64,000 nt of DNA from Candidatus Helarchaeota ASGARD archaeon Hel_GB_B (lineage in GTDB: Archaea > Asgardarchaeota > Lokiarchaeia > Helarchaeales > HEL-GB-B), in the NCBI GenBank assembly GCA_005191425.1, contig SUPR01000001.1, positions 5,762 through 69,761 on the forward strand, read 5' to 3'. Under the pieces are notes generated by a model, which saw only the letters and a list, made by a program, of their open reading frames with translations, did not search any database and had not been told where the DNA came from. Position 1 is the first letter of the stretch, and every line of letters begins with the position of its first letter. Positions 23,746 to 34,751 of the stretch are shown piece after piece. The translations under genes and the position numbers were made by a program.

Positions 23746-25011
23746 TTGTATAATCGACATTCTTCAAAAACAATAATAGGAGCAGATAGTGAAATTTTGA
23801 AGGGTAAGAAAATTGCTTTATGCATAACAGGTTCGGTAGCAGCTATGCAGACACCAATTATAGCAAGAAATTTAATGAGATATGGTGCAGAAGTTTTTCC
23901 TGTAATGACTAAAGCGGCAACTGAATTAATTAATCCAAATACACTACAATGGGCTACTGGAAATGAAGTTATTACTAAACTTACTGGAAGAGTTGAGCAT
24001 ATTACTCTTGCAGGAGATGAAATTGGTCATGTTGATATTATCTTGGTCTGTCCTGCTACTGCCAATACAATTAGTAAAATTGCGTGCGGAATTGATGATA
24101 CACCAGTTACTACTGTGGTTACTACTGCATTTGGAACTGGAATTCCAATTATTATTGTCCCTGCAATGCATGAAACAATGTATAACCACCCAATAGTTAT
24201 GAAAAACATTAAAGAATTAGAAAAATATGGTGTTAAATTCGTCGGTCCTAGAGTTGAAGAGAAAAAGGCAAAACTTGCTAAAGTAGACGAAATTGTCAAT
24301 ACTGTGATTAAAGAATTAACTACAAAATCACAAGATTTAAAGGGACTTAAATTTCTCATAACAACTGGCCCTACAAGAGAATATATTGATGCGATTAGAT
24401 ATATTAGTAATCCATCAAGTGGTAAAATGGGATTAGAAATTGCTATTAATGCAAAAAATAGAGGTGCAGATGTAACTCTTATTTATGGTGAAGGTACTAC
24501 TGTAGATATTCCGTCATATTTTGAAACAATTAAAGTCACTTCTACTGAAGATCTTTCTAATGCTATTTGTAATGAATTAGAAAAAAAACATTACGATGTT
24601 TTTATTTGCGCAGCAGCTATTAGTGACTTTACTGCAGTAAATAAATTAGACGAGAAAATCTCCTCAACGACCCCTGAACTATTAGTAAAATTAAAGCCAA
24701 CGCCTAAATGTATTGATAGAGCCCGAGAGGTAGATAAAAATATATATATATGTGGATTTAAAGCAGAATATCGAGTTTCTGAAGAAGAATTGGTCCAAAG
24801 AGCAAGAACAAAAATGAATGAAGCAAACATTAATTTAATGGTAGCTAATGATGTCGGAAAAGAAAAAAGAGGATTTAACACTGAAACTAATGAAGTCTTT
24901 TTAGTTTCAAATGATACTGTTGTCCATCTACCATTAGAAAACAAAAAGAAAATAGCTTCCAAAATTATTGATCATATTATTGATGATTTAAATGCTAAGA
25001 AGGAAAATTAA
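23746..25011 (+). CDS. coaBC: Bifunctional phosphopantothenoylcysteine decarboxylase / phosphopantothenate-cysteine ligase
   Basis: N-terminal flavoprotein domain (KKIALCITGSVAAMQTP...PATANTISKIACGIDD). C-terminal CoaB domain (ITTGPTREYIDAIRYISNPSSGKMG). Confidence 0.85.
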   Translation: MYNRHSSKTIIGADSEILKGKKIALCITGSVAAMQTPIIARNLMRYGAEVFPVMTKAATELINPNTLQWATGNEVITKLTGRVEHITLAGDEIGHVDIILVCPATANTISKIACGIDDTPVTTVVTTAFGTGIPIIIVPAMHETMYNHPIVMKNIKELEKYGVKFVGPRVEEKKAKLAKVDEIVNTVIKELTTKSQDLKGLKFLITTGPTREYIDAIRYISNPSSGKMGLEIAINAKNRGADVTLIYGEGTTVDIPSYFETIKVTSTEDLSNAICNELEKKHYDVFICAAAISDFTAVNKLDEKISSTTPELLVKLKPTPKCIDRAREVDKNIYICGFKAEYRVSEEELVQRARTKMNEANINLMVANDVGKEKRGFNTETNEVFLVSNDTVVHLPLENKKKIASKIIDHIIDDLNAKKEN

Positions 25012-25831
25012 ATTTAATTAATATTTTAGTTTCTATTTTAAATTTAAAAAGTGAATATATGTTAATAAAATAAATAATAATTCCCGTAGATTTTAATTTA
25101 TTATTATTTAATTTTTTTCTCTATAAGATTTTTTCTCTAAAAATTTTAAAAATAAGTAATTTTGAGTGAATCTTCTTAAATTATTCTAATTTCTTTATTC
25201 CAATTCATATTATGGCAAAAAATCTTTATTATAAACTTTTTATTCCATTTTTTTAACCAAAATACGAAAATTACATTTGAACATTCTTGAGTAGGCGCCC
25301 CCTATTATTTGTAAATATTTACCCAACATCAGTAATTAATTTTAAATCAAAAAGAGCACTACAACGCATTTTTTTCCATTTTGGTTTTATTTCCAATCTT
25401 GACTTATTTAAAACTTTTTGAAACTTTAATTTTCTTCTTATTTTTAAGTATTTAGAAAAACTTTTTATTTATTTTCTTTTCCTATAAAACAATTACAATT
25501 GATTTGATCTATTTTACAAGTTGAGTTTTTGTCGGTAATGGATTTTATTCATTGAAAAATTTTTTATTATAAAATAAAAAGATTTAAAAAGAAAGATTAG
25601 AGAATAAGTAAATTATGATTAAATAGATCGATTTTCGATATATTATAATCATTAATTTATCCCTAATCACCCATAATATAGATCAATATTATTATCACAA
25701 TTAATTATTAAAAATATAATTGTATGAAATTAATTAGGAGTTTAAATATCATCTAAACCGTAGAGATATTAATTAGCTAAATTAATACCCCATCGCTCCT
25801 AATTGACTATATTTAAAGATGTGGAATAAAA

Positions 25832-28800
25832 TTGGCACAAGTTGAAGTTATCACGAAAGATGTTATAATAGATGTACTGACAAATAACTGGCTAACAAAG
25901 CCAGAATTATTTAAAAAACTTCCACCGATAAGAGAACAGAGTACTGTAAAAGTTATTAATGATTATTTAGATACATTAACCCAAAAAGGAATTGTTACAA
26001 AAAAAATAATAAAAGGTAGAATTTGTTTTGGAATTTTTAAAGAAAAAGGGAACGAACCACATCTTAAACAAACAAAATTGGACCAAATAATGCCTAAAGA
26101 CCGGCAAATTAAAAAGACGGAGTCAAGAGTAAAAATAGGAAAAACTGTTTACACAAAAACAGTACCAAAGACAAAAGTAACTAAATCCAATAAAAAGACT
26201 TCAAATAAAATAAAAAAATCTGTGGATAATACTCAACTTAAAACTAAAAAAGAAAAAGGTACACCGAAAACAGATTCGATTGAAAAAAAGGACAATATTA
26301 AAAAAGAATCTATCAAAAAAAAGGAAACTCCAGCTAAATCTGACCTAAAAAATAGACCAGACCAAAAGCCAAATTTACCAATTAAATCCAAATCTAAATC
26401 TGAAAGTAAATCAAAAGCCGCAACTGATATTAAATCAGATCAAGGAGCAGAATCACATCCAAAATCTAAAGAAACTCAAAAACCTGAATTTAAAGAAAAA
26501 ACCGAATTATCAAATATAATAGAAAAGGAGAAAATAAAAGTTAGCCACAAATATAAAAGACGAAAAATTAATAAATCAGGAATTTTACCGACACGAGAAT
26601 ATGTCATGAGCAAAAAAGAAGAAGTTGGTACAGATAGAGCTTATCAACAACTTTCTCCCGCTGAATTTTTTAAGAAGAATAAAGCAATTGCAGGTTTTGA
26701 TAATGATCAAAAGGCAGTTTATACAACAATTAGAGAATTAGTTGAAAATTCTATTGATGCAGCTGAAGCAATCGAAAAGCCCCCAGATATTTTTATAAAA
26801 ATGGAGTCGCTTCCGAATAATAGATATAAGATTACAATCCGTGATAATGGCTCAGGGGTACCTGATGAAGAGATCCCAAAATGTTTTGGTATATTATTAT
26901 ATGGATCTAAATATATAAGAAAACAAGGAAGAGGTGCATTTGGTTTTGGAGGTAAGATGGCAATATTATATGGACAGATATCAACATTAGAACCTGTCGA
27001 AATAAAAAGTTCTACTAATGGAAAAGAAATTTATTATTACAAAATGAGGATTGATATAAAAAATAATGAACCGATAATTGAAGAATATAAAGTAATACCA
27101 AATTCGGATAATTGGACAGGAACAGAAATATCATTTAAATTTAAAGGAGATTATCCTAGAGTACGAAAAAAAGTATTAGAATACTTAAATAAAACTGCAA
27201 TTATCACACCTCATGCAGAAATCGAATATATTGAACCAATAGATGAGCGATGTGAAAAATGTAGATCAGATAGAGTTGAAACTCTTGGAGATGTGATATA
27301 CTGTAAAAAATGTAGTAATAAATTTATTCATAATATAAATATTAATGATAATTTTACTTTAAAAAAGATATTTCAAAATAAAATCGGTGGAATTGATAAA
27401 GACCTCTTTAACAAAATAAAATTGGATTTGTCGGATATTTTAGACGCTGAAATTGATAAACTCAGTAATTTAAGAGAAATATATAATAAAATTGAAGATA
27501 TTTATGGAAGTCCAATAGGAATAACCAAGGATAATTTAATTAATAAAATTTTTAAATTAATTTTAAAAGGAATTAAGAACTTTACAATTATTTCTAAGAA
27601 ATATAAGAATATTTCAGAAATAGATGTTACTACAAAAAAAGAAATAATAGAATTAATTGAAAATATAAATAATTTGTTTAAATATGTGGGTGGAAAGTCA
27701 TTCCCAATTACAAGTTTAACACCCGCAAATATTAAAACAAAATTAGAACATGAAAAAAAATTTCTAACTAGAGCAAAAAATTTTGATGCTTTTCTTTTAG
27801 ATATAATTTCAGGACTTGGAAAAAAGACATTAAAAAAGGTAGAGGATGAATATGGAGAAAATTTAAAAATAGATATTTTCGAAGCAGAATCTAAAATTGA
27901 TATGAATAAATTATATAAAATATTATATAAAAATCTTACATCTGGATTAATAAACATTAAAGATTTGACATTTGAACAATTCAAACAACTTATAGAAGAA
28001 GTAAAAAAAGAAAAAATTAAATATATCTCTAAATTAAAAGATGGAGTCCTTGAATATATCAGAAAAGATGCGTTTCTATCTCAGAAAGAGCCCTATAAAT
28101 TTATAAATAATTCAGTGGAAAAATGTCCATATTGTAATTCATCAGATATAATACAAATTGGGGACTGGAGGCAATGTCAAGTAAGTTCATGCAAGCATAA
28201 TTATTTAAATATTTATAGACACATTTATAGAAGAGGTACTACAGAATTACCGCCAAACCCGACTGCCAGTCTTCCGCATCCGCACGGAATTGATGCAGAT
28301 ACATTATTAGAAATGATTAAAGCAGAATTAAGCGAATTTTATATCACCTATGAACCTATAGGTAATTATTCTATGCAAAAACTATTAAGAAAAAATATTA
28401 AAGGAATTGGAAAAGAAACACTCAATAAGATTGAAGAATTAACGCCCGAATCCCTTGAGAAAGATGCCGATAAATTTAGAAATGTTAATCAATTGTATAA
28501 GGCAATTGAAAAAGCAGTGGGACATCCAATAGGAAAAGTTGAGGGTAAAAAAACAGTTTACAACATTAATAATTTAAAATTTGAAGAATTTAAAGAAATT
28601 ATTAACAATGAACTTTCAAATAATACTAATTTAGACTCTATTTTGAAAAAGTTATTTTCAAGATTGCGGGTTAAAATCTTAAATGAAATTAAAAAAGAAT
28701 TAGATATACAAATCGACCAACAGATTCCTTCAAATATTGATTTAGAAAAGTTATACAAATTATTATTAAAAAAACTCCCTAAAACCAATTCAATTAATGT

Positions 28801-29878
28801 AAAAGAATTAACTCTTGAAAAATTAAAACAATTAATCGAAAATGTCAAAAAAGATAAACATGAAGAGTTTAGGAAAGCAAGCCCAAATTTTTATTCATTT
28901 ATGAATAAGAGATTTCAGAGGACCGGGAAAAAAACAATTAATAATTTCTGTGAATTTGCGCGGCAAAATTCAACATTAAAGCTTTATCCAGAAACTTTAC
29001 TAATGGACCTAGATAAAGATGCCATAGTTAAAATCACGGATTTACTTCAAAAATTTCCATTTATGAGGCCAGATGCTAGTTGTTTGGCTCCTATAGGAGA
29101 ACAATTGCTTTTAAAAGGAATTATGAAGGAGATGAACCCTGAATGGGCTAGTACAGTCCAAAGACCACCTGAAGTTTGTGAAGGACATCCATTTATAATT
29201 GAGATGGGACTTGCTTATGGAGGAAAAATAGATTCTTCGGGTGATTATTTACAAAGATTTGCTAACCGTATTCCATTACTTTATGAATCAAGTATGGGTG
29301 TTTGTGCTACTGCAATTAAAAAAATCAATTGGAGACATTATAAATTAGATTTAGATAAAATGCCAATACATATTTTTATTCACATAGTATCTACGAAAAT
29401 ACCGTGGGGACGCTTTGGCAAGGAATATATTGCAAATAAACCAGAAATTAGGTCAGAAATAGAAAAAGGGATCAAATACTTAGCGGGACAACTCCGTACT
29501 TATTTGAGTAAAATTAGAAAAAAGGAATCTATTAAAAAGAAAGTTTTTAAATTGAAAATTTTTGGCCGCGCATTAATAGAGCCTTTAGCAGAATTAGTTG
29601 AAGCAGATCCATCGATCATCGTTAGAATAATATATAATTATATTATAAGTAAAAGACCAAAAAAAGAAAAAAGTAAAAATCTGTATAAGAATTTTTCAAA
29701 CTTTTTTGATGATTTAAGTCTTTTTGATAAATTAGATTTAGAATATCTGAAATTACTGGTTAAAGAAAAAAGTAAGAATCCATTTAAGAATTTCTTAAAT
29801 TTTTTTGATAACTTTAATTATATAAACTTATTAATTAAACTAAAAATAAATGATCAAGATGTCGACCAAAAGAGTTAG
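25832..29878 (+). CDS. top6B: DNA topoisomerase VI subunit B, strongly expanded (1348 aa). It has an N-terminal wH-like domain, a Lys-rich low-complexity linker, a GHKL ATPase, a ~530-aa insertion, an H2TH/transducer region and a repeat-containing tail.
   Basis: Bergerat-fold motifs VYTTIRELVENSIDA, ITIRDNGSGVP, GRGAFGFGGKMAILYG. Transducer block MRPDASCLAPIGEQ...GHPFIIEMGLAYGG...IPLLYESSMGV...IFIHIVSTKIPWG. Directly followed by, and overlapping, top6A. Confidence 0.85.
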   Translation: MAQVEVITKDVIIDVLTNNWLTKPELFKKLPPIREQSTVKVINDYLDTLTQKGIVTKKIIKGRICFGIFKEKGNEPHLKQTKLDQIMPKDRQIKKTESRVKIGKTVYTKTVPKTKVTKSNKKTSNKIKKSVDNTQLKTKKEKGTPKTDSIEKKDNIKKESIKKKETPAKSDLKNRPDQKPNLPIKSKSKSESKSKAATDIKSDQGAESHPKSKETQKPEFKEKTELSNIIEKEKIKVSHKYKRRKINKSGILPTREYVMSKKEEVGTDRAYQQLSPAEFFKKNKAIAGFDNDQKAVYTTIRELVENSIDAAEAIEKPPDIFIKMESLPNNRYKITIRDNGSGVPDEEIPKCFGILLYGSKYIRKQGRGAFGFGGKMAILYGQISTLEPVEIKSSTNGKEIYYYKMRIDIKNNEPIIEEYKVIPNSDNWTGTEISFKFKGDYPRVRKKVLEYLNKTAIITPHAEIEYIEPIDERCEKCRSDRVETLGDVIYCKKCSNKFIHNININDNFTLKKIFQNKIGGIDKDLFNKIKLDLSDILDAEIDKLSNLREIYNKIEDIYGSPIGITKDNLINKIFKLILKGIKNFTIISKKYKNISEIDVTTKKEIIELIENINNLFKYVGGKSFPITSLTPANIKTKLEHEKKFLTRAKNFDAFLLDIISGLGKKTLKKVEDEYGENLKIDIFEAESKIDMNKLYKILYKNLTSGLINIKDLTFEQFKQLIEEVKKEKIKYISKLKDGVLEYIRKDAFLSQKEPYKFINNSVEKCPYCNSSDIIQIGDWRQCQVSSCKHNYLNIYRHIYRRGTTELPPNPTASLPHPHGIDADTLLEMIKAELSEFYITYEPIGNYSMQKLLRKNIKGIGKETLNKIEELTPESLEKDADKFRNVNQLYKAIEKAVGHPIGKVEGKKTVYNINNLKFEEFKEIINNELSNNTNLDSILKKLFSRLRVKILNEIKKELDIQIDQQIPSNIDLEKLYKLLLKKLPKTNSINVKELTLEKLKQLIENVKKDKHEEFRKASPNFYSFMNKRFQRTGKKTINNFCEFARQNSTLKLYPETLLMDLDKDAIVKITDLLQKFPFMRPDASCLAPIGEQLLLKGIMKEMNPEWASTVQRPPEVCEGHPFIIEMGLAYGGKIDSSGDYLQRFANRIPLLYESSMGVCATAIKKINWRHYKLDLDKMPIHIFIHIVSTKIPWGRFGKEYIANKPEIRSEIEKGIKYLAGQLRTYLSKIRKKESIKKKVFKLKIFGRALIEPLAELVEADPSIIVRIIYNYIISKRPKKEKSKNLYKNFSNFFDDLSLFDKLDLEYLKLLVKEKSKNPFKNFLNFFDNFNYINLLIKLKINDQDVDQKS
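29663..29830 (+). repeat. Imperfect ~45-bp direct repeat inside the 3' end of top6B. It encodes the duplicated peptides KSKNLYKNFSNFFDD and KSKNPFKNFLNFFDN.
   Basis: aaaagtaaaaatctgtataagaatttttcaaacttttttgatga versus aaaagtaagaatccatttaagaatttcttaaatttttttgataa, about 100 bp apart. Confidence 0.5.
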
Positions 29879-31082
29879 AAGTAGTAGTAAAAAGTCTACT
29901 GTAAAAAAGAAAACTACTAAAAATTCCAATAAAAAATTGACTAGTAAAAAAGAGGTTGAAAAAGAAAAAAAGAAGGAAATTTCAGAAGAATCATTAATTG
30001 TTATAGAAAATATTGATTTTTATGCAAATCAAATTTTAAAAGGATTTATTAATGGTAATCCAACCATAGAAATTCCAATTAGAGGAAAATCAAATGTTGA
30101 ATATGATGAAGAGAGGGGGATTATTAAAGTATTAGATAAATCAAAAGTTTCTGAACGATCTTTTCAAAATATTGCACATACAAAAAAATTTATGCAGTAC
30201 ATTATGGTCTTGAATTTTTGTAAAAAATTATTGAAGACAAACTCGACTTCTGATTTAAGAGATTTATATTATAGTTTAAAGAGAAAAATACCAGGGACAA
30301 GAAATAAAACATTTGATTCACAAGAAGAATCAAATCCAATTATTGAAGATATAGAAGTAGCTATGGACATATGGAGAGAACGATTACATATTTCTGCAGA
30401 TCCAAAGGGGTACATCGTTGGTGATATTATTTTTACTCAAAAATTAAAAAATAAAGACCAAAGAATTGATTGTAATGAGATGGGTACCGGTTGGGGAATT
30501 CCGAGTAATGTAGAAAGGGACATTTTAGAAATAGAAAATGTAAATGCAAAATATTTATTGGCTATTGAATCTGCAGGAATGTACAGCAGACTGGTTGAGG
30601 AAAATTTTCATGAAAATAATAAGTGTATATTAATTGCATTAAAAGGCCAAGCAAGTAGAGGGACTAGAAGATTAATAAATCGGATTGCTTATGAAAAGAA
30701 TATACCAGTTTATGTATTCGTAGATGGAGATCCATGGGGTTTTTATATTTATTCAGTGCTTAAATTCGGTAGTATGTCGTTATCTTTTATAGGGAGTAAA
30801 CTGGCTACACCTAAAGCAAAATTTATTGGAATGACGATGGAGGATATAAGCGACTATAAGTTAGAAGATTCAACTCATCCGTTAAGTAAAGTAGACATTA
30901 AAAGAATAGATGACCTATTGGATTTACCATGGTTCCAAAATGATGAATGGCAAACTGAACTAAAATTGATGAAAAAAATTCAAAAACGTATCGAACAACA
31001 GGCGCTTGCATCAAGGTCGTTAGATTTTGTAGCCACGACTTATTTACCTGAAAAAATTAAAAATAAGAAATTTTTACCTTAA
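29850..31082 (+). CDS. top6A: DNA topoisomerase VI subunit A (Spo11 family)
   Basis: CAP/winged-helix with catalytic Tyr context RDLYYSL. Toprim domain with AIESAGMYSRL (Glu) and FVDGDPWGFYI (DxD). Lys-rich N-terminal tail; the start may be the internal Met at 29859. Confidence 0.85.
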   Translation: MIKMSTKRVRSSSKKSTVKKKTTKNSNKKLTSKKEVEKEKKKEISEESLIVIENIDFYANQILKGFINGNPTIEIPIRGKSNVEYDEERGIIKVLDKSKVSERSFQNIAHTKKFMQYIMVLNFCKKLLKTNSTSDLRDLYYSLKRKIPGTRNKTFDSQEESNPIIEDIEVAMDIWRERLHISADPKGYIVGDIIFTQKLKNKDQRIDCNEMGTGWGIPSNVERDILEIENVNAKYLLAIESAGMYSRLVEENFHENNKCILIALKGQASRGTRRLINRIAYEKNIPVYVFVDGDPWGFYIYSVLKFGSMSLSFIGSKLATPKAKFIGMTMEDISDYKLEDSTHPLSKVDIKRIDDLLDLPWFQNDEWQTELKLMKKIQKRIEQQALASRSLDFVATTYLPEKIKNKKFLP

Positions 31083-31954
31083 TTAGAAAATTTTTGTTCA
31101 TATTTTAAATTACGTTGTTTTCGCTCTTCTGCGAGTTGTTTTAGAAATTCTAGTTGACGGAATCCCCAACGAGCTCTTCCAATAGAGACACCTGGAGCCC
31201 AAGTCCTTAGTATATCTAATTCTTCTTGTGTTGGAAGTGGTGTTTGTTTCAAATCATCAGCAACTTTTAAGTCCCAAGGGACAGAACGAAGTAACTTTTT
31301 TAGGTTCACTTTAGGGTGTATAGACTCTAGATAAATTTCTTTAGTATCTTTTTCGAATTTAAAAACACCTTTTTGAGTAATAACGGCATGCGGCCCACCA
31401 GGAAGTCCTGCTTCTTCGCGAGAATTTCCTCCTTTTAGCCAGCCGGGCGTGGTAATATATGGTAATTCATTAACAAATCTACCATGTCGCATCATAATAA
31501 CAATTCTTTTCGCATAACCACCAATTTCATTAGCACCACCAGAACCAGCTATACGTTTATCGGGGAAACGTTGAAAAGAAGTATTAATATTTCCATATTT
31601 ATCTATTTGAGAGGCGCCTAGAAATCCCACATCAAAATATCCGCCAAATAAATAATAGCCGAAAATTTCGATTAGTTCACAAGATGCAGCACAACCTTTC
31701 ATTGCGGTCATATCAGCTATGTGTATAGGAGGTCGATACAAGTTAAATTCAATTATTCCTCCTTCCATAATTAAAGTGAGGTTTTTTCCAGATTTTTTAG
31801 CTAATAATGCAGCAAGAATAGGATAGCCTTGCCCTACGAATACGACATCTCCATCATTTAATTCGCGAGAGGCAGCAGAACACATAATTTCTTCATATGT
31901 AAGTTTAATCGTTTTAATTTTCATCAACCTCCACTTCAAACATTTCAGGTGCAT
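31079..31954 (-). CDS. CoA-transferase family I, beta subunit (glutaconate/3-oxoacid CoA-transferase B-like)
   Basis: DGDVVFVGQGYPILAALLAK...YYLFGGYFDVGFLGASQID is typical of subunit B. The true start is probably the internal Met at ~31924, giving an 11-nt overlap with the alpha-subunit stop. Confidence 0.55.
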   Translation of the reverse strand: MHLKCLKWRLMKIKTIKLTYEEIMCSAASRELNDGDVVFVGQGYPILAALLAKKSGKNLTLIMEGGIIEFNLYRPPIHIADMTAMKGCAASCELIEIFGYYLFGGYFDVGFLGASQIDKYGNINTSFQRFPDKRIAGSGGANEIGGYAKRIVIMMRHGRFVNELPYITTPGWLKGGNSREEAGLPGGPHAVITQKGVFKFEKDTKEIYLESIHPKVNLKKLLRSVPWDLKVADDLKQTPLPTQEELDILRTWAPGVSIGRARWGFRQLEFLKQLAEERKQRNLKYEQKFSN

Positions 31955-32936
31955 CTAAAATATCATCCATTTTCAGTTCAAGGAGCTCCATATCCTTTAG
32001 AAATGAAGAACCTAAATTGACAGATGCAGAAGGATAGACCCTAGCTCGGAGTTTATGCAAAGGTTGCATACCATAGACGTCAGTATAATGTTCGATATAA
32101 TGATATCGATCTTCAATATTATAAATCCATTCATCTACCCAAGAGGAGAAGAGAGATTTTGAAACAGATGCAGCTGAATATAGTCCTACCATCATCCTAT
32201 CCATATCATAATAACCAAGGACTTCTGATGGGTGAGCACCCCAAGGTTCAATACATATTGCATCAACTCTAAAACCAGGAATGATAGTATTATTAGGCGA
32301 TAATCTTACAACTTCACGGGGTACCATTTCCTCAGCCGAAACAATAATTCTTTTACTTGCAAGAGCTCCATGTTTAACAGTACCAAGAGCACCCCAAAGT
32401 TGAGCATTTCCATCTTGATCAACTCTTTGGCAATGGACAATTGCAACATCAGGTTTTATTGCAGGGACAAGAAGTACTTTTTCTTTAGGATTAAACGGAT
32501 TGTCAATTAATTTAAACATTCCTTCTTTATGACGATTCCAGATATCAGTATATAAAATAGATGGTTTTGCTGGAAAAAATGGTAAATTTAATGCACCAGC
32601 CATTAGCATTGCAGCTACAGTATAATTGGTATAATCTTGAACTTCAATATTATATTCAACTACTCCTCTATCAAAGGCTCTCTGCCCTTTAACTATTCTA
32701 TATGACCATGATGAAATGACTTTTTTAAGGCAACCACAGCCTGCCAGCAAATCAAGCTCGTGCATACAAGTGGCTTGTACTGCAGTTAAATTTTTCTTTT
32801 TTTGTCTAATTATTTCATGTATTAATGCATATGGTCCTGCAGTACCACAGCTTGTAATTGATAAAGTATCTCCATCATGGACAAATTTTTTAATTGCTTC
32901 TTTTGTGGACATTAATTTGGGAGATTCATTTATCAT
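31914..32936 (-). CDS. CoA-transferase family I, alpha subunit (GctA-like)
   Basis: STKEAIKKFVHDGDTLSITSCGTAGPYALIHEI is a subunit-A N-terminal signature. Paired with the beta subunit immediately downstream. Confidence 0.55.
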   Translation of the reverse strand: MINESPKLMSTKEAIKKFVHDGDTLSITSCGTAGPYALIHEIIRQKKKNLTAVQATCMHELDLLAGCGCLKKVISSWSYRIVKGQRAFDRGVVEYNIEVQDYTNYTVAAMLMAGALNLPFFPAKPSILYTDIWNRHKEGMFKLIDNPFNPKEKVLLVPAIKPDVAIVHCQRVDQDGNAQLWGALGTVKHGALASKRIIVSAEEMVPREVVRLSPNNTIIPGFRVDAICIEPWGAHPSEVLGYYDMDRMMVGLYSAASVSKSLFSSWVDEWIYNIEDRYHYIEHYTDVYGMQPLHKLRARVYPSASVNLGSSFLKDMELLELKMDDILDAPEMFEVEVDEN

Positions 32937-33332
32937 TTTTGTACACTTTTTTCTTAAAAGAATATAGATTAAATATTAAAATTTTTTATTTCATAGAAGA
33001 TTTTTTGAATTTTATTATATAAATTAAAATTAATTATAGAAATGGAAATAGAAAATTAAACATTAGAATAATATGGTAAATTTTATAATATTTTCTGGAT
33101 GTTTTGAATCTATAAATAATTAAAGAATAATAAATACTCTTAAAAATATATGAGAATTTCAAAATCAAAGTATTTAAAATAATTTTAATATTTAGTTTTT
33201 TTCCAATAAAATTAATAATTAAAATAAAAAATATTAAGGAAAAGGTTTTTTTTACTTTAATACATGAAGTTTAATAGAAGATCCTTTAAATTAATAATGT
33301 ATACAAAAAAATAAAAATAAAAGTAGGTTCAA

Positions 33333-34751
33333 TTGACGATTACTATAATGAAATTTGGCGGAAGTTGTCTGAAAGACGCTGGTTCATTTAAAAAAACATT
33401 ATCTGCAATTAAAAAATTTAAGAACGATAAATTAGTACTAGTTTGTTCAGCCCTTAATGGAGTTACTAATTATTTATTGGAAACAAGTTTAGAGATTGAA
33501 AACAGAACATATAAACCTGAAGAACGATTAGCTTTTTTAAGAAACAGACATATAGAACTTGCCAAAAATGTAATATCTAATAAAAAATTTTTGGAACAAT
33601 GTATAAAATTTATTGAAAATTCACTTGAAAGGTTACAAAATACATTATACGGAGTATACGAAATAGGTTCTACGACTCGCTCCACAGATTTTATACTCTC
33701 GTTCGGTGAGCGTTTATCGACATATATATTATATGAATTTTTGCAATCAAATAATTTTAAAGCAGAATACAAGAGCGCTGACAAGTTCATTTATACAAAT
33801 ATTGAGTATAAGAACCAATTGCCTTTATTTGAAAAAAGTAAAGAAGCAATTTTAGAAGAATTCAAAGAATCAATTAAAGATAGAATTTGTGTAGTAACAG
33901 GCTACATTTCAAGAAATATAAGAGGAAATGTAACAACTTTAGGAAGAGGAGGTAGCGACTTAACCGCGACGATATTAGGTTATAGCTTAAAAGATTTAGA
34001 CACAGACATTAAAATAATTTTATGGAAAGATGTCCCAGGGCTTTTAACAGCAAATCCAAAAGTAGAAAACAAAGCGAGGCTCATTAAAACAATTTCTTTT
34101 GAAGAAGCGCGCGAAATGGCTTATTTTGGGTCAAAAGTTTTACACCCATTATGTATAATTCCGGCACAAAAAGCTGGAATTCCCATCGAATTACGAAACA
34201 TTAATGACCAAAATTCTGAGATGTTTACTACAATAGGAAATTTTAGGAGAGGCCCAGAAACGCATAAATTGCATCCCGTAAAAGCAATTACTTCATCTAA
34301 TGCAGCAATGATTACTGTTAGTGGTGAAGCAATGGTATCATTGCCAGGGACTGCAGCTCGAATATTTAATGTTATGGGAGATAATAATATTAATGTAATA
34401 ATGATTTCACAAAGCTCGTCTGAAAATAATATTACATTTTTAGTAGAAGACAAGGAAAATGAAATATCTAAAGCAAAAACAGCTCTTGAAAATTCTGAAT
34501 TTTTCGGAAAAAAATTTTTTGATATTAAAATTGATGATAATGTTAGTTTAATAGCAGTAGTTGGACCAATGGCATATATCCCGGGTATTGCAGGAAAATT
34601 GTTTAGTTTAATGGGTGAAAATAAAATTAATATACGTGCTATAGCTCAAGGTAGCTCTGAATTAAATATTTCGTTCGTTATCGATAGAGACCAATGTCAG
34701 AAAGCAATTAAAATAATTCATGAAGGATTTGAATTATATAAAGAAAATTAA
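33333..34751 (+). CDS. lysC: Aspartate kinase with two C-terminal ACT domains
   Basis: MKFGGSCLKD..., LVCSALNGVTN, GRGGSDLTATILG; tandem ACT-like C-terminus. The likely start is the Met at ~33348 (MKFGG). Confidence 0.8.
   Translation: MTITIMKFGGSCLKDAGSFKKTLSAIKKFKNDKLVLVCSALNGVTNYLLETSLEIENRTYKPEERLAFLRNRHIELAKNVISNKKFLEQCIKFIENSLERLQNTLYGVYEIGSTTRSTDFILSFGERLSTYILYEFLQSNNFKAEYKSADKFIYTNIEYKNQLPLFEKSKEAILEEFKESIKDRICVVTGYISRNIRGNVTTLGRGGSDLTATILGYSLKDLDTDIKIILWKDVPGLLTANPKVENKARLIKTISFEEAREMAYFGSKVLHPLCIIPAQKAGIPIELRNINDQNSEMFTTIGNFRRGPETHKLHPVKAITSSNAAMITVSGEAMVSLPGTAARIFNVMGDNNINVIMISQSSSENNITFLVEDKENEISKAKTALENSEFFGKKFFDIKIDDNVSLIAVVGPMAYIPGIAGKLFSLMGENKINIRAIAQGSSELNISFVIDRDQCQKAIKIIHEGFELYKEN

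Follow-up and report, generated by a model that had tools for sequence, protein, structure and literature searches.

A topoisomerase VI B subunit of a Helarchaeota archaeon enlarged by H2TH-like modules and zinc ribbons

The window analysed here, a stretch of 64,000 nucleotides (nt) from contig SUPR01000001.1 (positions 5,762 to 69,761; assembly GCA_005191425.1) of the Candidatus Helarchaeota archaeon Hel_GB_B, carries the gene top6B, which encodes the B subunit of topoisomerase VI (Topo VI) as a protein of 1348 amino acids (aa). In this protein the H2TH domain appears to have been amplified to five tandem modules and joined by two zinc ribbons, probably creating an extended surface for the arms of the bound DNA, and we consider this explanation, taken as a whole, to be likely. 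We hold its structural and evolutionary part with high confidence; the DNA-arm mechanism, which is modelled on the characterised H2TH domain of Topo VI, seems to us about evenly balanced between right and wrong. From the N to the C terminus the protein is composed of the GHKL ATPase domain, a first added block (zinc ribbon 1, the H2TH-like modules Q1 and R1, a long helix and zinc ribbon 2; block A), the canonical linker, two further H2TH-like modules (Q2 and R2), the canonical H2TH and the transducer.

The preliminary description of this stretch had recognised a 1348-aa Top6B, and the open reading frame (ORF) as well as the family assignment bear this out. The protein passes the NCBIfam equivalog cut-offs (NF003218, 481.6 against 274; TIGR01052, 413.5 against 380.7), Pfam finds HATPase_c at aa 292-372 and the transducer PF09239 at aa 1080-1237 (E 3.7e-53), and the top sequence matches in PDB are the Top6B proteins of S. 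shibatae and M. mazei. The ATP-binding motifs RELVENSIDA (E/N box), DNGSGVP (DxGxG) and GRGAFGFGGK (glycine loop) all align to S. shibatae Top6B, in alignment with which the switch lysine (GKE) of the transducer is also kept (STKIPWGRFGKEYIA aligned with STKIPYKSAGKESIA), and the WKxY motif is represented by INWRHYKL, aligned with LDWKRYGI, the lysine being replaced by arginine. By these motifs the window protein is a catalytically intact Top6B, accompanied by a competent-looking Top6A whose ORF overlaps that of top6B by 29 nt.

The position of the extra sequence was deduced from alignment to S. shibatae Top6B: aa 271-469 (GHKL) correspond to its residues 6-207, aa 799-852 (returning strand, linker YRRGTTELPPNP..PHPHG and first part of the H2TH) to residues 214-273, and aa 1022-1238 (H2TH and transducer) to residues 255-467. 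On this alignment the extra sequence is two blocks with the canonical GHKL-to-H2TH linker between them. Block A spans aa 470-798 by alignment (470-795 without the returning strand, aa 796-799 of the model) and stands in place of a turn of ~6 residues in the last GHKL beta-hairpin, the strands of which (aa 463-467 and 796-799) flank it in the AlphaFold2 (AF2) model. Block B (aa ~832-1016) lies within the H2TH region and sets its two H2TH-like modules ahead of the canonical one. The single contiguous insertion at 27242-28830 (aa 471-1000) envisaged earlier is not tenable, since the canonical strand and linker, from YRRGTTELPPNP to PHPHGID (aa 799-821) and on into the first H2TH helix (~831), lie in the middle of that interval; its 3' end at 28830 is also displaced, the extra sequence ending at about aa 1016-1020 (nt ~28880-28890). 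Likewise, the proposed placement between GHKL and the H2TH/transducer region needs to be refined, block A being inside the last GHKL beta-hairpin and block B inside the H2TH region. The distance from PHPxG to LSPxG amounts to 270 aa in the window protein, compared with 81 aa in 12 of 15 canonical-length Top6B proteins and 82-89 aa in the other three. Together the two blocks add ~515 aa, and the rest of the excess length lies outside them, in an N-terminal extension of 262 aa and in ~100 aa of C-terminal tail.

To judge from profile comparisons, the added modules are homologous to the H2TH domain of the protein itself, in agreement with the earlier suggestion that the elaboration was duplicated from it. 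When a profile of 15 repeat units was compared with a profile of the canonical Top6B H2TH using hhalign, the probability was 90.5% (E 1.3e-6, 50 columns), and a second, longer alignment of the units yielded 87.8% (E 3.3e-6), the two comparisons spanning 50-52 columns in the same register; the hidden Markov model (HMM) of the repeat unit also matches the H2TH position in canonical Top6B proteins. This HMM was built from R units and matched Q2, which was outside the training set, with 25.5 bits (E 6.8e-10); the alpha-1 helix of Q2 is the canonical first H2TH helix. The match to Q1 is weak in the window protein (4.9 bits) and reaches 10.6-20.8 bits in orthologues. Each module follows the pattern alpha-1 (LTxxxLKxLLxxxK), alpha-2, hairpin, alpha-3 (FLxxxISGLGKKTLEKIE), loop and alpha-4 (IDLxxLYxxI), and the succession of alpha-1, alpha-2, hairpin, alpha-3 and alpha-4 occurs five times in the AF2 model of the whole protein, where the predicted local distance difference test score (pLDDT) of R2 is 81-92. 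The hairpin motifs GLGKKT (aa 661), GIGKET (aa 858) and TGKKT (aa 1031) are found where they had been reported.

The predicted fold of R1 points in the same direction. An AF2 model of aa 624-743 made from a paralogue alignment (mean pLDDT 83.4) was compared by Foldseek with 350,542 PDB chains, and ranks 1-10 were all occupied by S. shibatae Top6B, with E-values (0.13-0.9) that are not significant alone. Nine of these ten matches cover 68-78 columns with a root-mean-square deviation (rmsd) of 2.3-3.8 A and a probability of 0.77-0.96, the tenth (1mx0_E) being weaker (88 columns, rmsd 7.1 A, probability 0.60). After rank 10 follow sIHF, chains of ribosome entries, which we take to be S13, and a chain of the yeast RQC complex, presumably Rqc2 and presumably also an H2TH protein. 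Both sIHF and S13 were counted among the H2TH folds by Wendorff and Berger (PMC5922973).

Judged by alignment, blocks A and B are collinear copies of one another. Smith-Waterman comparison of aa 465-798 with aa 799-1085 gave a score of 207, against 50 +/- 9 for shuffled sequences (z=17.6), and when aa 462-760 were compared with aa 755-1085, a collinear alignment of aa 465-760 (ribbon 1, Q1, R1) to aa 756-1038 (ribbon 2, linker, Q2, R2) scored 258.5, against 76 +/- 11 for shuffles (z=16.4). The internal duplication noticed earlier in the 'KLYK...' stretches, which are present at aa 693-728 and 973-1009, is therefore far beyond chance. Self-BLASTP of the insert printed no off-diagonal match, so that Smith-Waterman alignment with shuffling was needed, and at the DNA level the window gene contains no tandem repeats of note, suggesting that the duplication is old. 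A plausible course of events would begin with the insertion of a zinc ribbon into the terminal GHKL beta-hairpin and the triplication of the H2TH domain, followed by tandem duplication of a segment of ~290 aa (zinc ribbon ... Q, R, alpha-1).

Zinc ribbon 1 (CEKCRSDRVETLGDVIYCKKCS, aa 474-495, nt 27251-27316) and the second cysteine cluster (CPYCNSSDIIQIGDWRQCQVSSCKH, aa 765-789, nt 28124-28198) both occur where they had first been placed. By sequence pattern both clusters are C4 zinc ribbons, with CxxC/Cx4C knuckles ~13-14 residues apart that are conserved: all eight cysteines (474, 477, 491 and 494; 765, 768, 782 and 787) are invariant in three full-length orthologues. Compared with one another alone, the two ribbons give z=4.8, a score that none of 2000 shuffles reaches. 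Matches to Pfam zinc-ribbon models are below cut-off only, and in the AF2 model the ribbons form beta-hairpins at low pLDDT.

The enlargement is, as far as comparison of homologues can tell, real, conserved, lineage-specific and under purifying selection. A look-up of the exact window protein sequence gave no match. A protein labelled Candidatus Helarchaeota (P0001; here and below, taxon labels are those of the depositors) matches the query region at 100%, and its nine-member cluster at 90% identity draws on as many different assemblies, with a length of 1348 aa throughout. A more distant orthologue of 1326 aa (P0002), from the metagenome-assembled genome GCA_054383595.1, has the same architecture, with 73% of residues identical over aa 265-1250 and 67% over its whole length, and the same gene neighbours (CoaBC, Top6B, Top6A, two CoA-transferases and aspartokinase). 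The architecture recurs in a further orthologue represented by two fragments (P0040 and L068) and in P0039, and the orthologues that keep it range from 57 to 73% identity. When 1.84 billion representative proteins were searched exhaustively by HMMER with the insert profile, only P0002, P0039 and P0040 were recovered, which suggests that the architecture is restricted to a small clade carrying the labels Helarchaeota or Promethearchaeota; a scan of metagenomes added one more partial orthologue, L068. A word-indexed search with the same profile recovered the fragment P0040 only, missing P0002. The matches listed in a scan of genome contigs with the words EFFKKNK and EIYYYKM were mostly canonical-length Top6B of DPANN and a few other archaea, and the scan is uninformative for Helarchaeota.

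These homologues bear directly on whether the insert might be an intein, another mobile element, or an artefact of assembly or annotation that fused unrelated ORFs. Other Top6B genes do have inteins: the proteins P0033 (Woesearchaeota, 1056 aa) and P0037 (Thermoplasmata, 1162 aa), which are likewise about twice the usual length, carry precomputed matches to PF14890 (both) and PF14528 (P0037), which we take to be intein-splicing and homing-endonuclease families. Moreover, block A starts just before a cysteine and ends near an 'HN' dipeptide. However, the canonical H2TH spacing of 81 aa is kept in P0033 and P0037, and the window protein has no such domain, as no Pfam match to Hint, intein or LAGLIDADG/homing-endonuclease families appears even at E<=10; the single 'HN' close to where block A ends is followed by tyrosine rather than Cys, Ser or Thr. 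The check for splicing motifs called for earlier is thus negative. The insert is also homologous to the H2TH domain of its own host protein, and an assembly chimera is contradicted by the identical length in nine assemblies, by the same architecture in divergent orthologues (P0002, P0039 and P0040/L068), and by a single uninterrupted ORF in a window of ~28% GC with no break of composition at the gene. We regard this explanation as refuted and its probability as negligible.

A different objection would be that slippage during replication, or unequal recombination, in an AT-rich genome (~28% GC) produced the modules as a near-neutral by-product, tolerated in surface loops without a specific function. 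Within the clade the number of modules is, on sequence matches, not fixed, ranging from 5 to at least 13. In P0039 (2053 aa, encoded by a gene that reaches the contig end) at least 13 module matches were counted, and modules are inserted even inside the last canonical H2TH. The matches include two arrays of tandem repeats, with a unit of 222 nt (74 aa) and a nucleotide identity of 74-79%, that are evidently recent, as this alternative would have it. Nei-Gojobori estimates against the P0002 gene gave ratios of non-synonymous to synonymous divergence (dN/dS) of ~0.24 for the insert blocks, 0.04-0.08 for GHKL, linker, H2TH and transducer (0.04 both for aa 799-843, at 89% identity, and for aa 1020-1078, at 86%) and 0.52 for the lysine-rich linker that precedes the GHKL domain, values that are rough because dS is near saturation. 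The insert consequently evolves 3-6 times faster than the core, as the near-neutral account would again predict, but its dN/dS is well under that of the neighbouring lysine-rich linker, and at 57-73% overall identity neither the eight cysteines nor the hairpin motifs vary. The copies in the window gene, moreover, are old and free of DNA-level repeats, yet intact, and a second Top6B lineage has evolved tandem H2TH arrays of its own; the repeat profile matches the H2TH of the first type and barely that of the second. We therefore consider a functionless by-product very unlikely.

As to what the amplified H2TH modules might do, the characterised enzymes offer a guide. The H2TH of Topo VI engages the distal arms of a sharply bent G-segment and links closure of the ATPase gate to cleavage, and in H2TH mutants ATP hydrolysis is no longer coupled to strand passage (PMC5922973); in the cryo-EM structures of M. 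mazei Top6 with a DNA minicircle, the H2TH residues R263, K268 and K308 are on the DNA arms in all states (PMC13040014). In the window protein four further modules in each B subunit, and eight in the holoenzyme, would emerge from the same lateral face, given the positions of the terminal GHKL hairpin and of the H2TH. In most of these modules the basic G-x-G-K-(K/E)-T hairpin is retained, and they would probably lengthen the arm-binding surface, allowing a tighter hold on more DNA that is long, bent or crossing. The zinc ribbons might brace the base of block A, and the lysine-rich linker (net charge +33) together with an N-terminal winged-helix-like domain could add general, non-specific affinity for DNA.

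Several points weigh against this interpretation, in addition to the near-saturation of dS. M. mazei Topo VI H2TH mutants keep their DNA-stimulated ATPase activity. The fold assignment is affected as well: Foldseek E-values for a single module render the structural evidence supportive only, AF2 confidence in the whole-protein model is low for both zinc ribbons as well as for Q1 and Q2, and the window modules match no Pfam HhH or H2TH model. The helix-hairpin-helix likeness initially attributed to the hairpins thus extends to the motifs quoted, which are present, and not to any Pfam model of that family; in P0039 the Pfam HhH matches are sub-threshold only (HHH_5, 25.5 against 27; HHH_3, 18.9 against 27). 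Finally, the net charges of the modules are modest (0 to +6) and the hairpin of R2 is degenerate in the window protein, lacking the G-x-G motif. The latter two features would equally suit a protein-protein or regulatory scaffold, in which modules and zinc ribbons would recruit chromatin or replication partners or promote higher-order assembly of Topo VI, HhH-type helices serving for protein contacts. The tail of Q1 and the long connecting helix, whose DAFLSQKEPYKFIN is kept in orthologues, have no counterpart in a DNA-binding H2TH domain, plant Topo VI has the partners BIN4 and RHL1, and extra partner interfaces have been proposed for Asgard and eukaryotic Topo VI (PMC9665070). Against a scaffold, the basic hairpin ISGLGKKTLEKIE is the best-conserved element of the repeat, the +33 linker and the winged-helix-like domain of the same protein point to DNA, and no partner gene is conserved beside the operon. 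We consider the scaffold unlikely and continue to favour an extended DNA-arm surface.

The variation in module number is also useful. It is by the H2TH that true Topo VI-B is told apart from the meiotic TopoVIB-like proteins, and since recent work shows this domain to read the bent G-segment arms and to license cleavage, a natural series with 1, 5 and at least 13 modules is valuable. Such a series would be a ready-made experiment on how DNA-arm contacts determine the length of substrate, the preference for crossings and the coupling between ATP use and strand passage. The series belongs to the archaeal group nearest to eukaryotes, where it has apparently evolved twice in parallel, and it suggests that Asgard replication and topology proteins can enlarge by internal domain amplification, a mode typical of eukaryotes. 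For annotators, entries of 1100-2050 aa of these kinds named 'ATP-binding protein' or 'hypothetical protein' are Topo VI B subunits.

The parallel case came to light through P0038, a weak match of 1256 aa whose NCBI copy is labelled Helarchaeota and whose locus reads CoaBC, Robl, Top6B, Top6A ... aspartokinase. With its core as query, a large second type of Top6B was found in lineages labelled Odin, Thor, Loki, Frey, Baldr, Hod and Heimdall, comprising 88 proteins of 600-760 aa with one detectable H2TH and 29 longer ones (822-1349 aa) in which 3-5 tandem H2TH are detectable (P0038, P0066-P0091, P0094 and P0107; loci L002, L069 and L070, the last two being further long members at the same locus). 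Many of the long type-2 proteins bear no annotation beyond 'hypothetical' or 'ATP-binding protein'. Identity of the window protein to type 2 is low, 24-30% in GHKL and 25-28% in the transducer, compared with 44-48% identity in GHKL to Fervidicoccaceae and related Top6B of canonical length (P0003, P0005, P0006 and P0008-P0013). Among the latter, P0003 (594 aa, from a Logan assembly) is the closest canonical-length relative of the window core (GHKL 46%, transducer 50% identity). It has an insertion of 77 aa of its own in the H2TH, at the same site as block B, made of the short helical repeats IQEIEQKL, IQEIKQRL, IKEVERKL and IQIIRQKL.

Compared with L001, L002, L069 and L070, window positions 23746-34742 represent a CoaBC ... 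Top6B, Top6A ... aspartokinase locus that exists with two deeply divergent types of operon among related Asgard metagenome-assembled genomes. Between the window and L002 the flanking genes are 50-54% identical, Top6A only 31% and Top6B ~27%, which suggests either that the operon was replaced in situ or that it has diverged extremely at a shared locus. Like the window protein, the long type-2 proteins (P0038, P0070, P0078, P0083, P0091 and others, labelled Helarchaeota, Lokiarchaeota, Hodarchaeota and Heimdallarchaeota) have tandem H2TH arrays, winged-helix-like terminal domains and, in some, lysine-rich linkers; unlike it, they lack zinc ribbons as well as any block within the GHKL hairpin, and their repeats derive from their own H2TH type. 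The possibility that the window repeats were grafted from type-2 arrays was ruled out, as they match the type-1 H2TH at E ~1e-6 and the type-2 H2TH at E 0.0076. By sequence, H2TH was thus apparently amplified in parallel in two Top6B lineages at the same locus. This raises the further, quite doubtful possibility that two lineages were independently selected for a Topo VI that wraps or tracks much longer DNA, comparable to the DNA-wrapping C-terminal domain of gyrase. Were this the case, the number of modules (5 to at least 13) could tune the length of DNA held, and a new topological selectivity might follow, for example for crossing chirality, for histone-bound or looped DNA, or even directional supercoiling.

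The features of the gene, its product and its operon partner are collected in Table 1.

Table 1. Features of top6B, its predicted protein and its partner gene in the window
Feature	Position (nt)	Strand	Basis
top6B, complete, TTG start, 1348 aa	25832..29878	+	ORF list; Pfam, NCBIfam and PDB matches to Top6B
Winged-helix-like domain (N-terminal), aa 1-70	25832..26041	+	81% identical to P0002, dN/dS 0.14
Lysine-rich low-complexity linker, aa 71-262, net charge +33	26042..26617	+	Composition; 38% identity and dN/dS 0.52 against P0002
GHKL (Bergerat) ATPase domain, aa 263-469	26618..27238	+	S. shibatae Top6B alignment, motifs intact; Pfam HATPase_c
Putative zinc ribbon 1, aa 470-505, Cys 474/477/491/494, CxxC-x13-CxxC; opens block A	27239..27346	+	Cys pattern
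H2TH-like module Q1 with two-helix tail, aa 506-628	27347..27715	+	Collinear with Q2; helix pattern of model fits
H2TH-like module R1, aa 629-728, hairpin ISGLGKKT, then orphan alpha-1 helix	27716..28015	+	hhalign to canonical H2TH; AF2
Long connecting helix (predicted), aa 729-760	28016..28111	+	Model helix aa 714-749, low pLDDT
Putative zinc ribbon 2, aa 761-795, Cys 765/768/782/787; closes block A	28112..28216	+	Invariant Cys; likeness to ribbon 1
Returning GHKL beta-strand and canonical linker, aa 796-818, YRRGTTELPPNPTASLPHPHG	28217..28285	+	Aligns to S. shibatae residues 214 onward
H2TH-like module Q2, aa 819-910, hairpin IKGIGKET	28286..28561	+	Repeat-unit HMM; aligns to S. shibatae up to residue 273
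H2TH-like module R2, aa 911-987, degenerate hairpin FSRLRVKI	28562..28792	+	Collinear with R1; canonical-H2TH HMM aa 917-978, E 4e-5
Last, canonical H2TH, aa 988-1078, FQRTGKKT	28793..29065	+	Aligns to S. shibatae residues 255 onward
Transducer domain, aa 1079-1245, switch lysine (GKE), W(R)xY	29066..29566	+	PF09239 E 3.7e-53; alignment to 1z59/1mx0
C-terminal tail, aa 1246-1348, internal repeat KSKNLYKNFSNFFDDL / KSKNPFKNFLNFFDNF	29567..29878	+	Sequence
top6A partner, 410 aa	29850..31082	+	Pfam TP6A_N and Toprim (TOP6A-Spo11_Toprim) domains; RDLYY, E and DxD (DGD) motifs visible

The winged-helix-like domain at the N terminus had no match in a Pfam search of aa 1-70. This segment resembles the C-terminal domain of long type-2 Top6B (P0070, Smith-Waterman score 72, z=9.3, reached by 0 of 1000 shuffles; P0038, z=4.9), suggesting that the same accessory domain occupies opposite ends in the two types. 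In P0039 the region equivalent to the lysine-rich linker contains a 24-nt tandem repeat encoding AEPKSKSK, and a possible motif KIG(K)TV(Y/H)T, recognised by eye only, is common to the lysine-rich linkers of the window protein and P0038. The tail of P0002 contains one copy of the repeat that is seen twice in the window tail and ends 33 residues earlier. The N-terminal tail of Top6A (~45 aa, window 29850-29990) is rich in Lys and Ser, as in the L001 and L068 orthologues. Upstream of top6B lies an AT-rich spacer of 820 nt (25012-25831) without any ORF of at least 50 aa; at this position L001, L002 and L003 have a Robl_LC7 gene, of which tblastn found none in the window, and an Rfam scan of the window revealed no RNA family.

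The enzymes closest to the window protein in design are the canonical archaeal Top6B proteins (S. shibatae, 1MX0/2ZBK; M. mazei, 2Q2E and 9O8P), which have the same GHKL, linker, H2TH, transducer, switch lysine and W-x-x-Y, and an adjacent Top6A. With S. shibatae Top6B the GHKL stretch is matched at E 1e-52 and the transducer at 3e-36, and the model of the whole protein superposes on canonical Top6B with a TM-score of ~0.85 normalised to the target. The differences lie in the additions: canonical Top6B has a single H2TH of ~78 aa, and its terminal GHKL hairpin has a turn of six residues, whereas the window protein has, as predicted, five H2TH-like modules, two zinc ribbons, the 262-aa N-terminal extension and the C-terminal tail. 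C4 ribbons also serve as accessory nucleic-acid-binding elements in type IA topoisomerases (E. coli TopA, reverse gyrase), which possess C-terminal zinc-ribbon arrays; these differ in family and position from the ribbons of the window protein, which number only two and flank the inserted pair of H2TH-like modules. The eukaryotic TOPOVIBL/MTOPVIB proteins, to whose expansion the preliminary description had likened the insert, share with it divergence from Top6B in size and sequence, but the likeness goes no further, for these partners of Spo11 lack the H2TH and often the ATP-binding motifs (PMC9665070, PMC11302465), whereas the window protein multiplies the former and keeps the latter, with its other catalytic motifs, intact.

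Open-access full-text searches with Asgard, Lokiarchaeota or Helarchaeota yielded nothing on H2TH amplification or on zinc ribbons of Top6B, nor did the surveys of Topo VI diversity (PMC9665070, PMC11302465) or a study of the Asgard replisome (PMC12680538), and no description of long type-2 Asgard Top6B was found in the searchable open-access literature. The nearest parallel is topoisomerase V of Methanopyrus kandleri, in which a catalytic core is likewise combined with tandem, hairpin-containing helical DNA-binding modules, namely 12 (HhH)2 domains (PMC9489208, PMC4838376). That enzyme is of type IC, its modules are (HhH)2 rather than H2TH, some of them with AP-lyase sites, and the array is C-terminal instead of lying between ATPase and transducer, so that it may be regarded as a functional analogue, by analogy only. 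The enzyme family and the H2TH module are thus known, and what is new is their multiplied, zinc-ribbon-flanked arrangement and its parallel occurrence.

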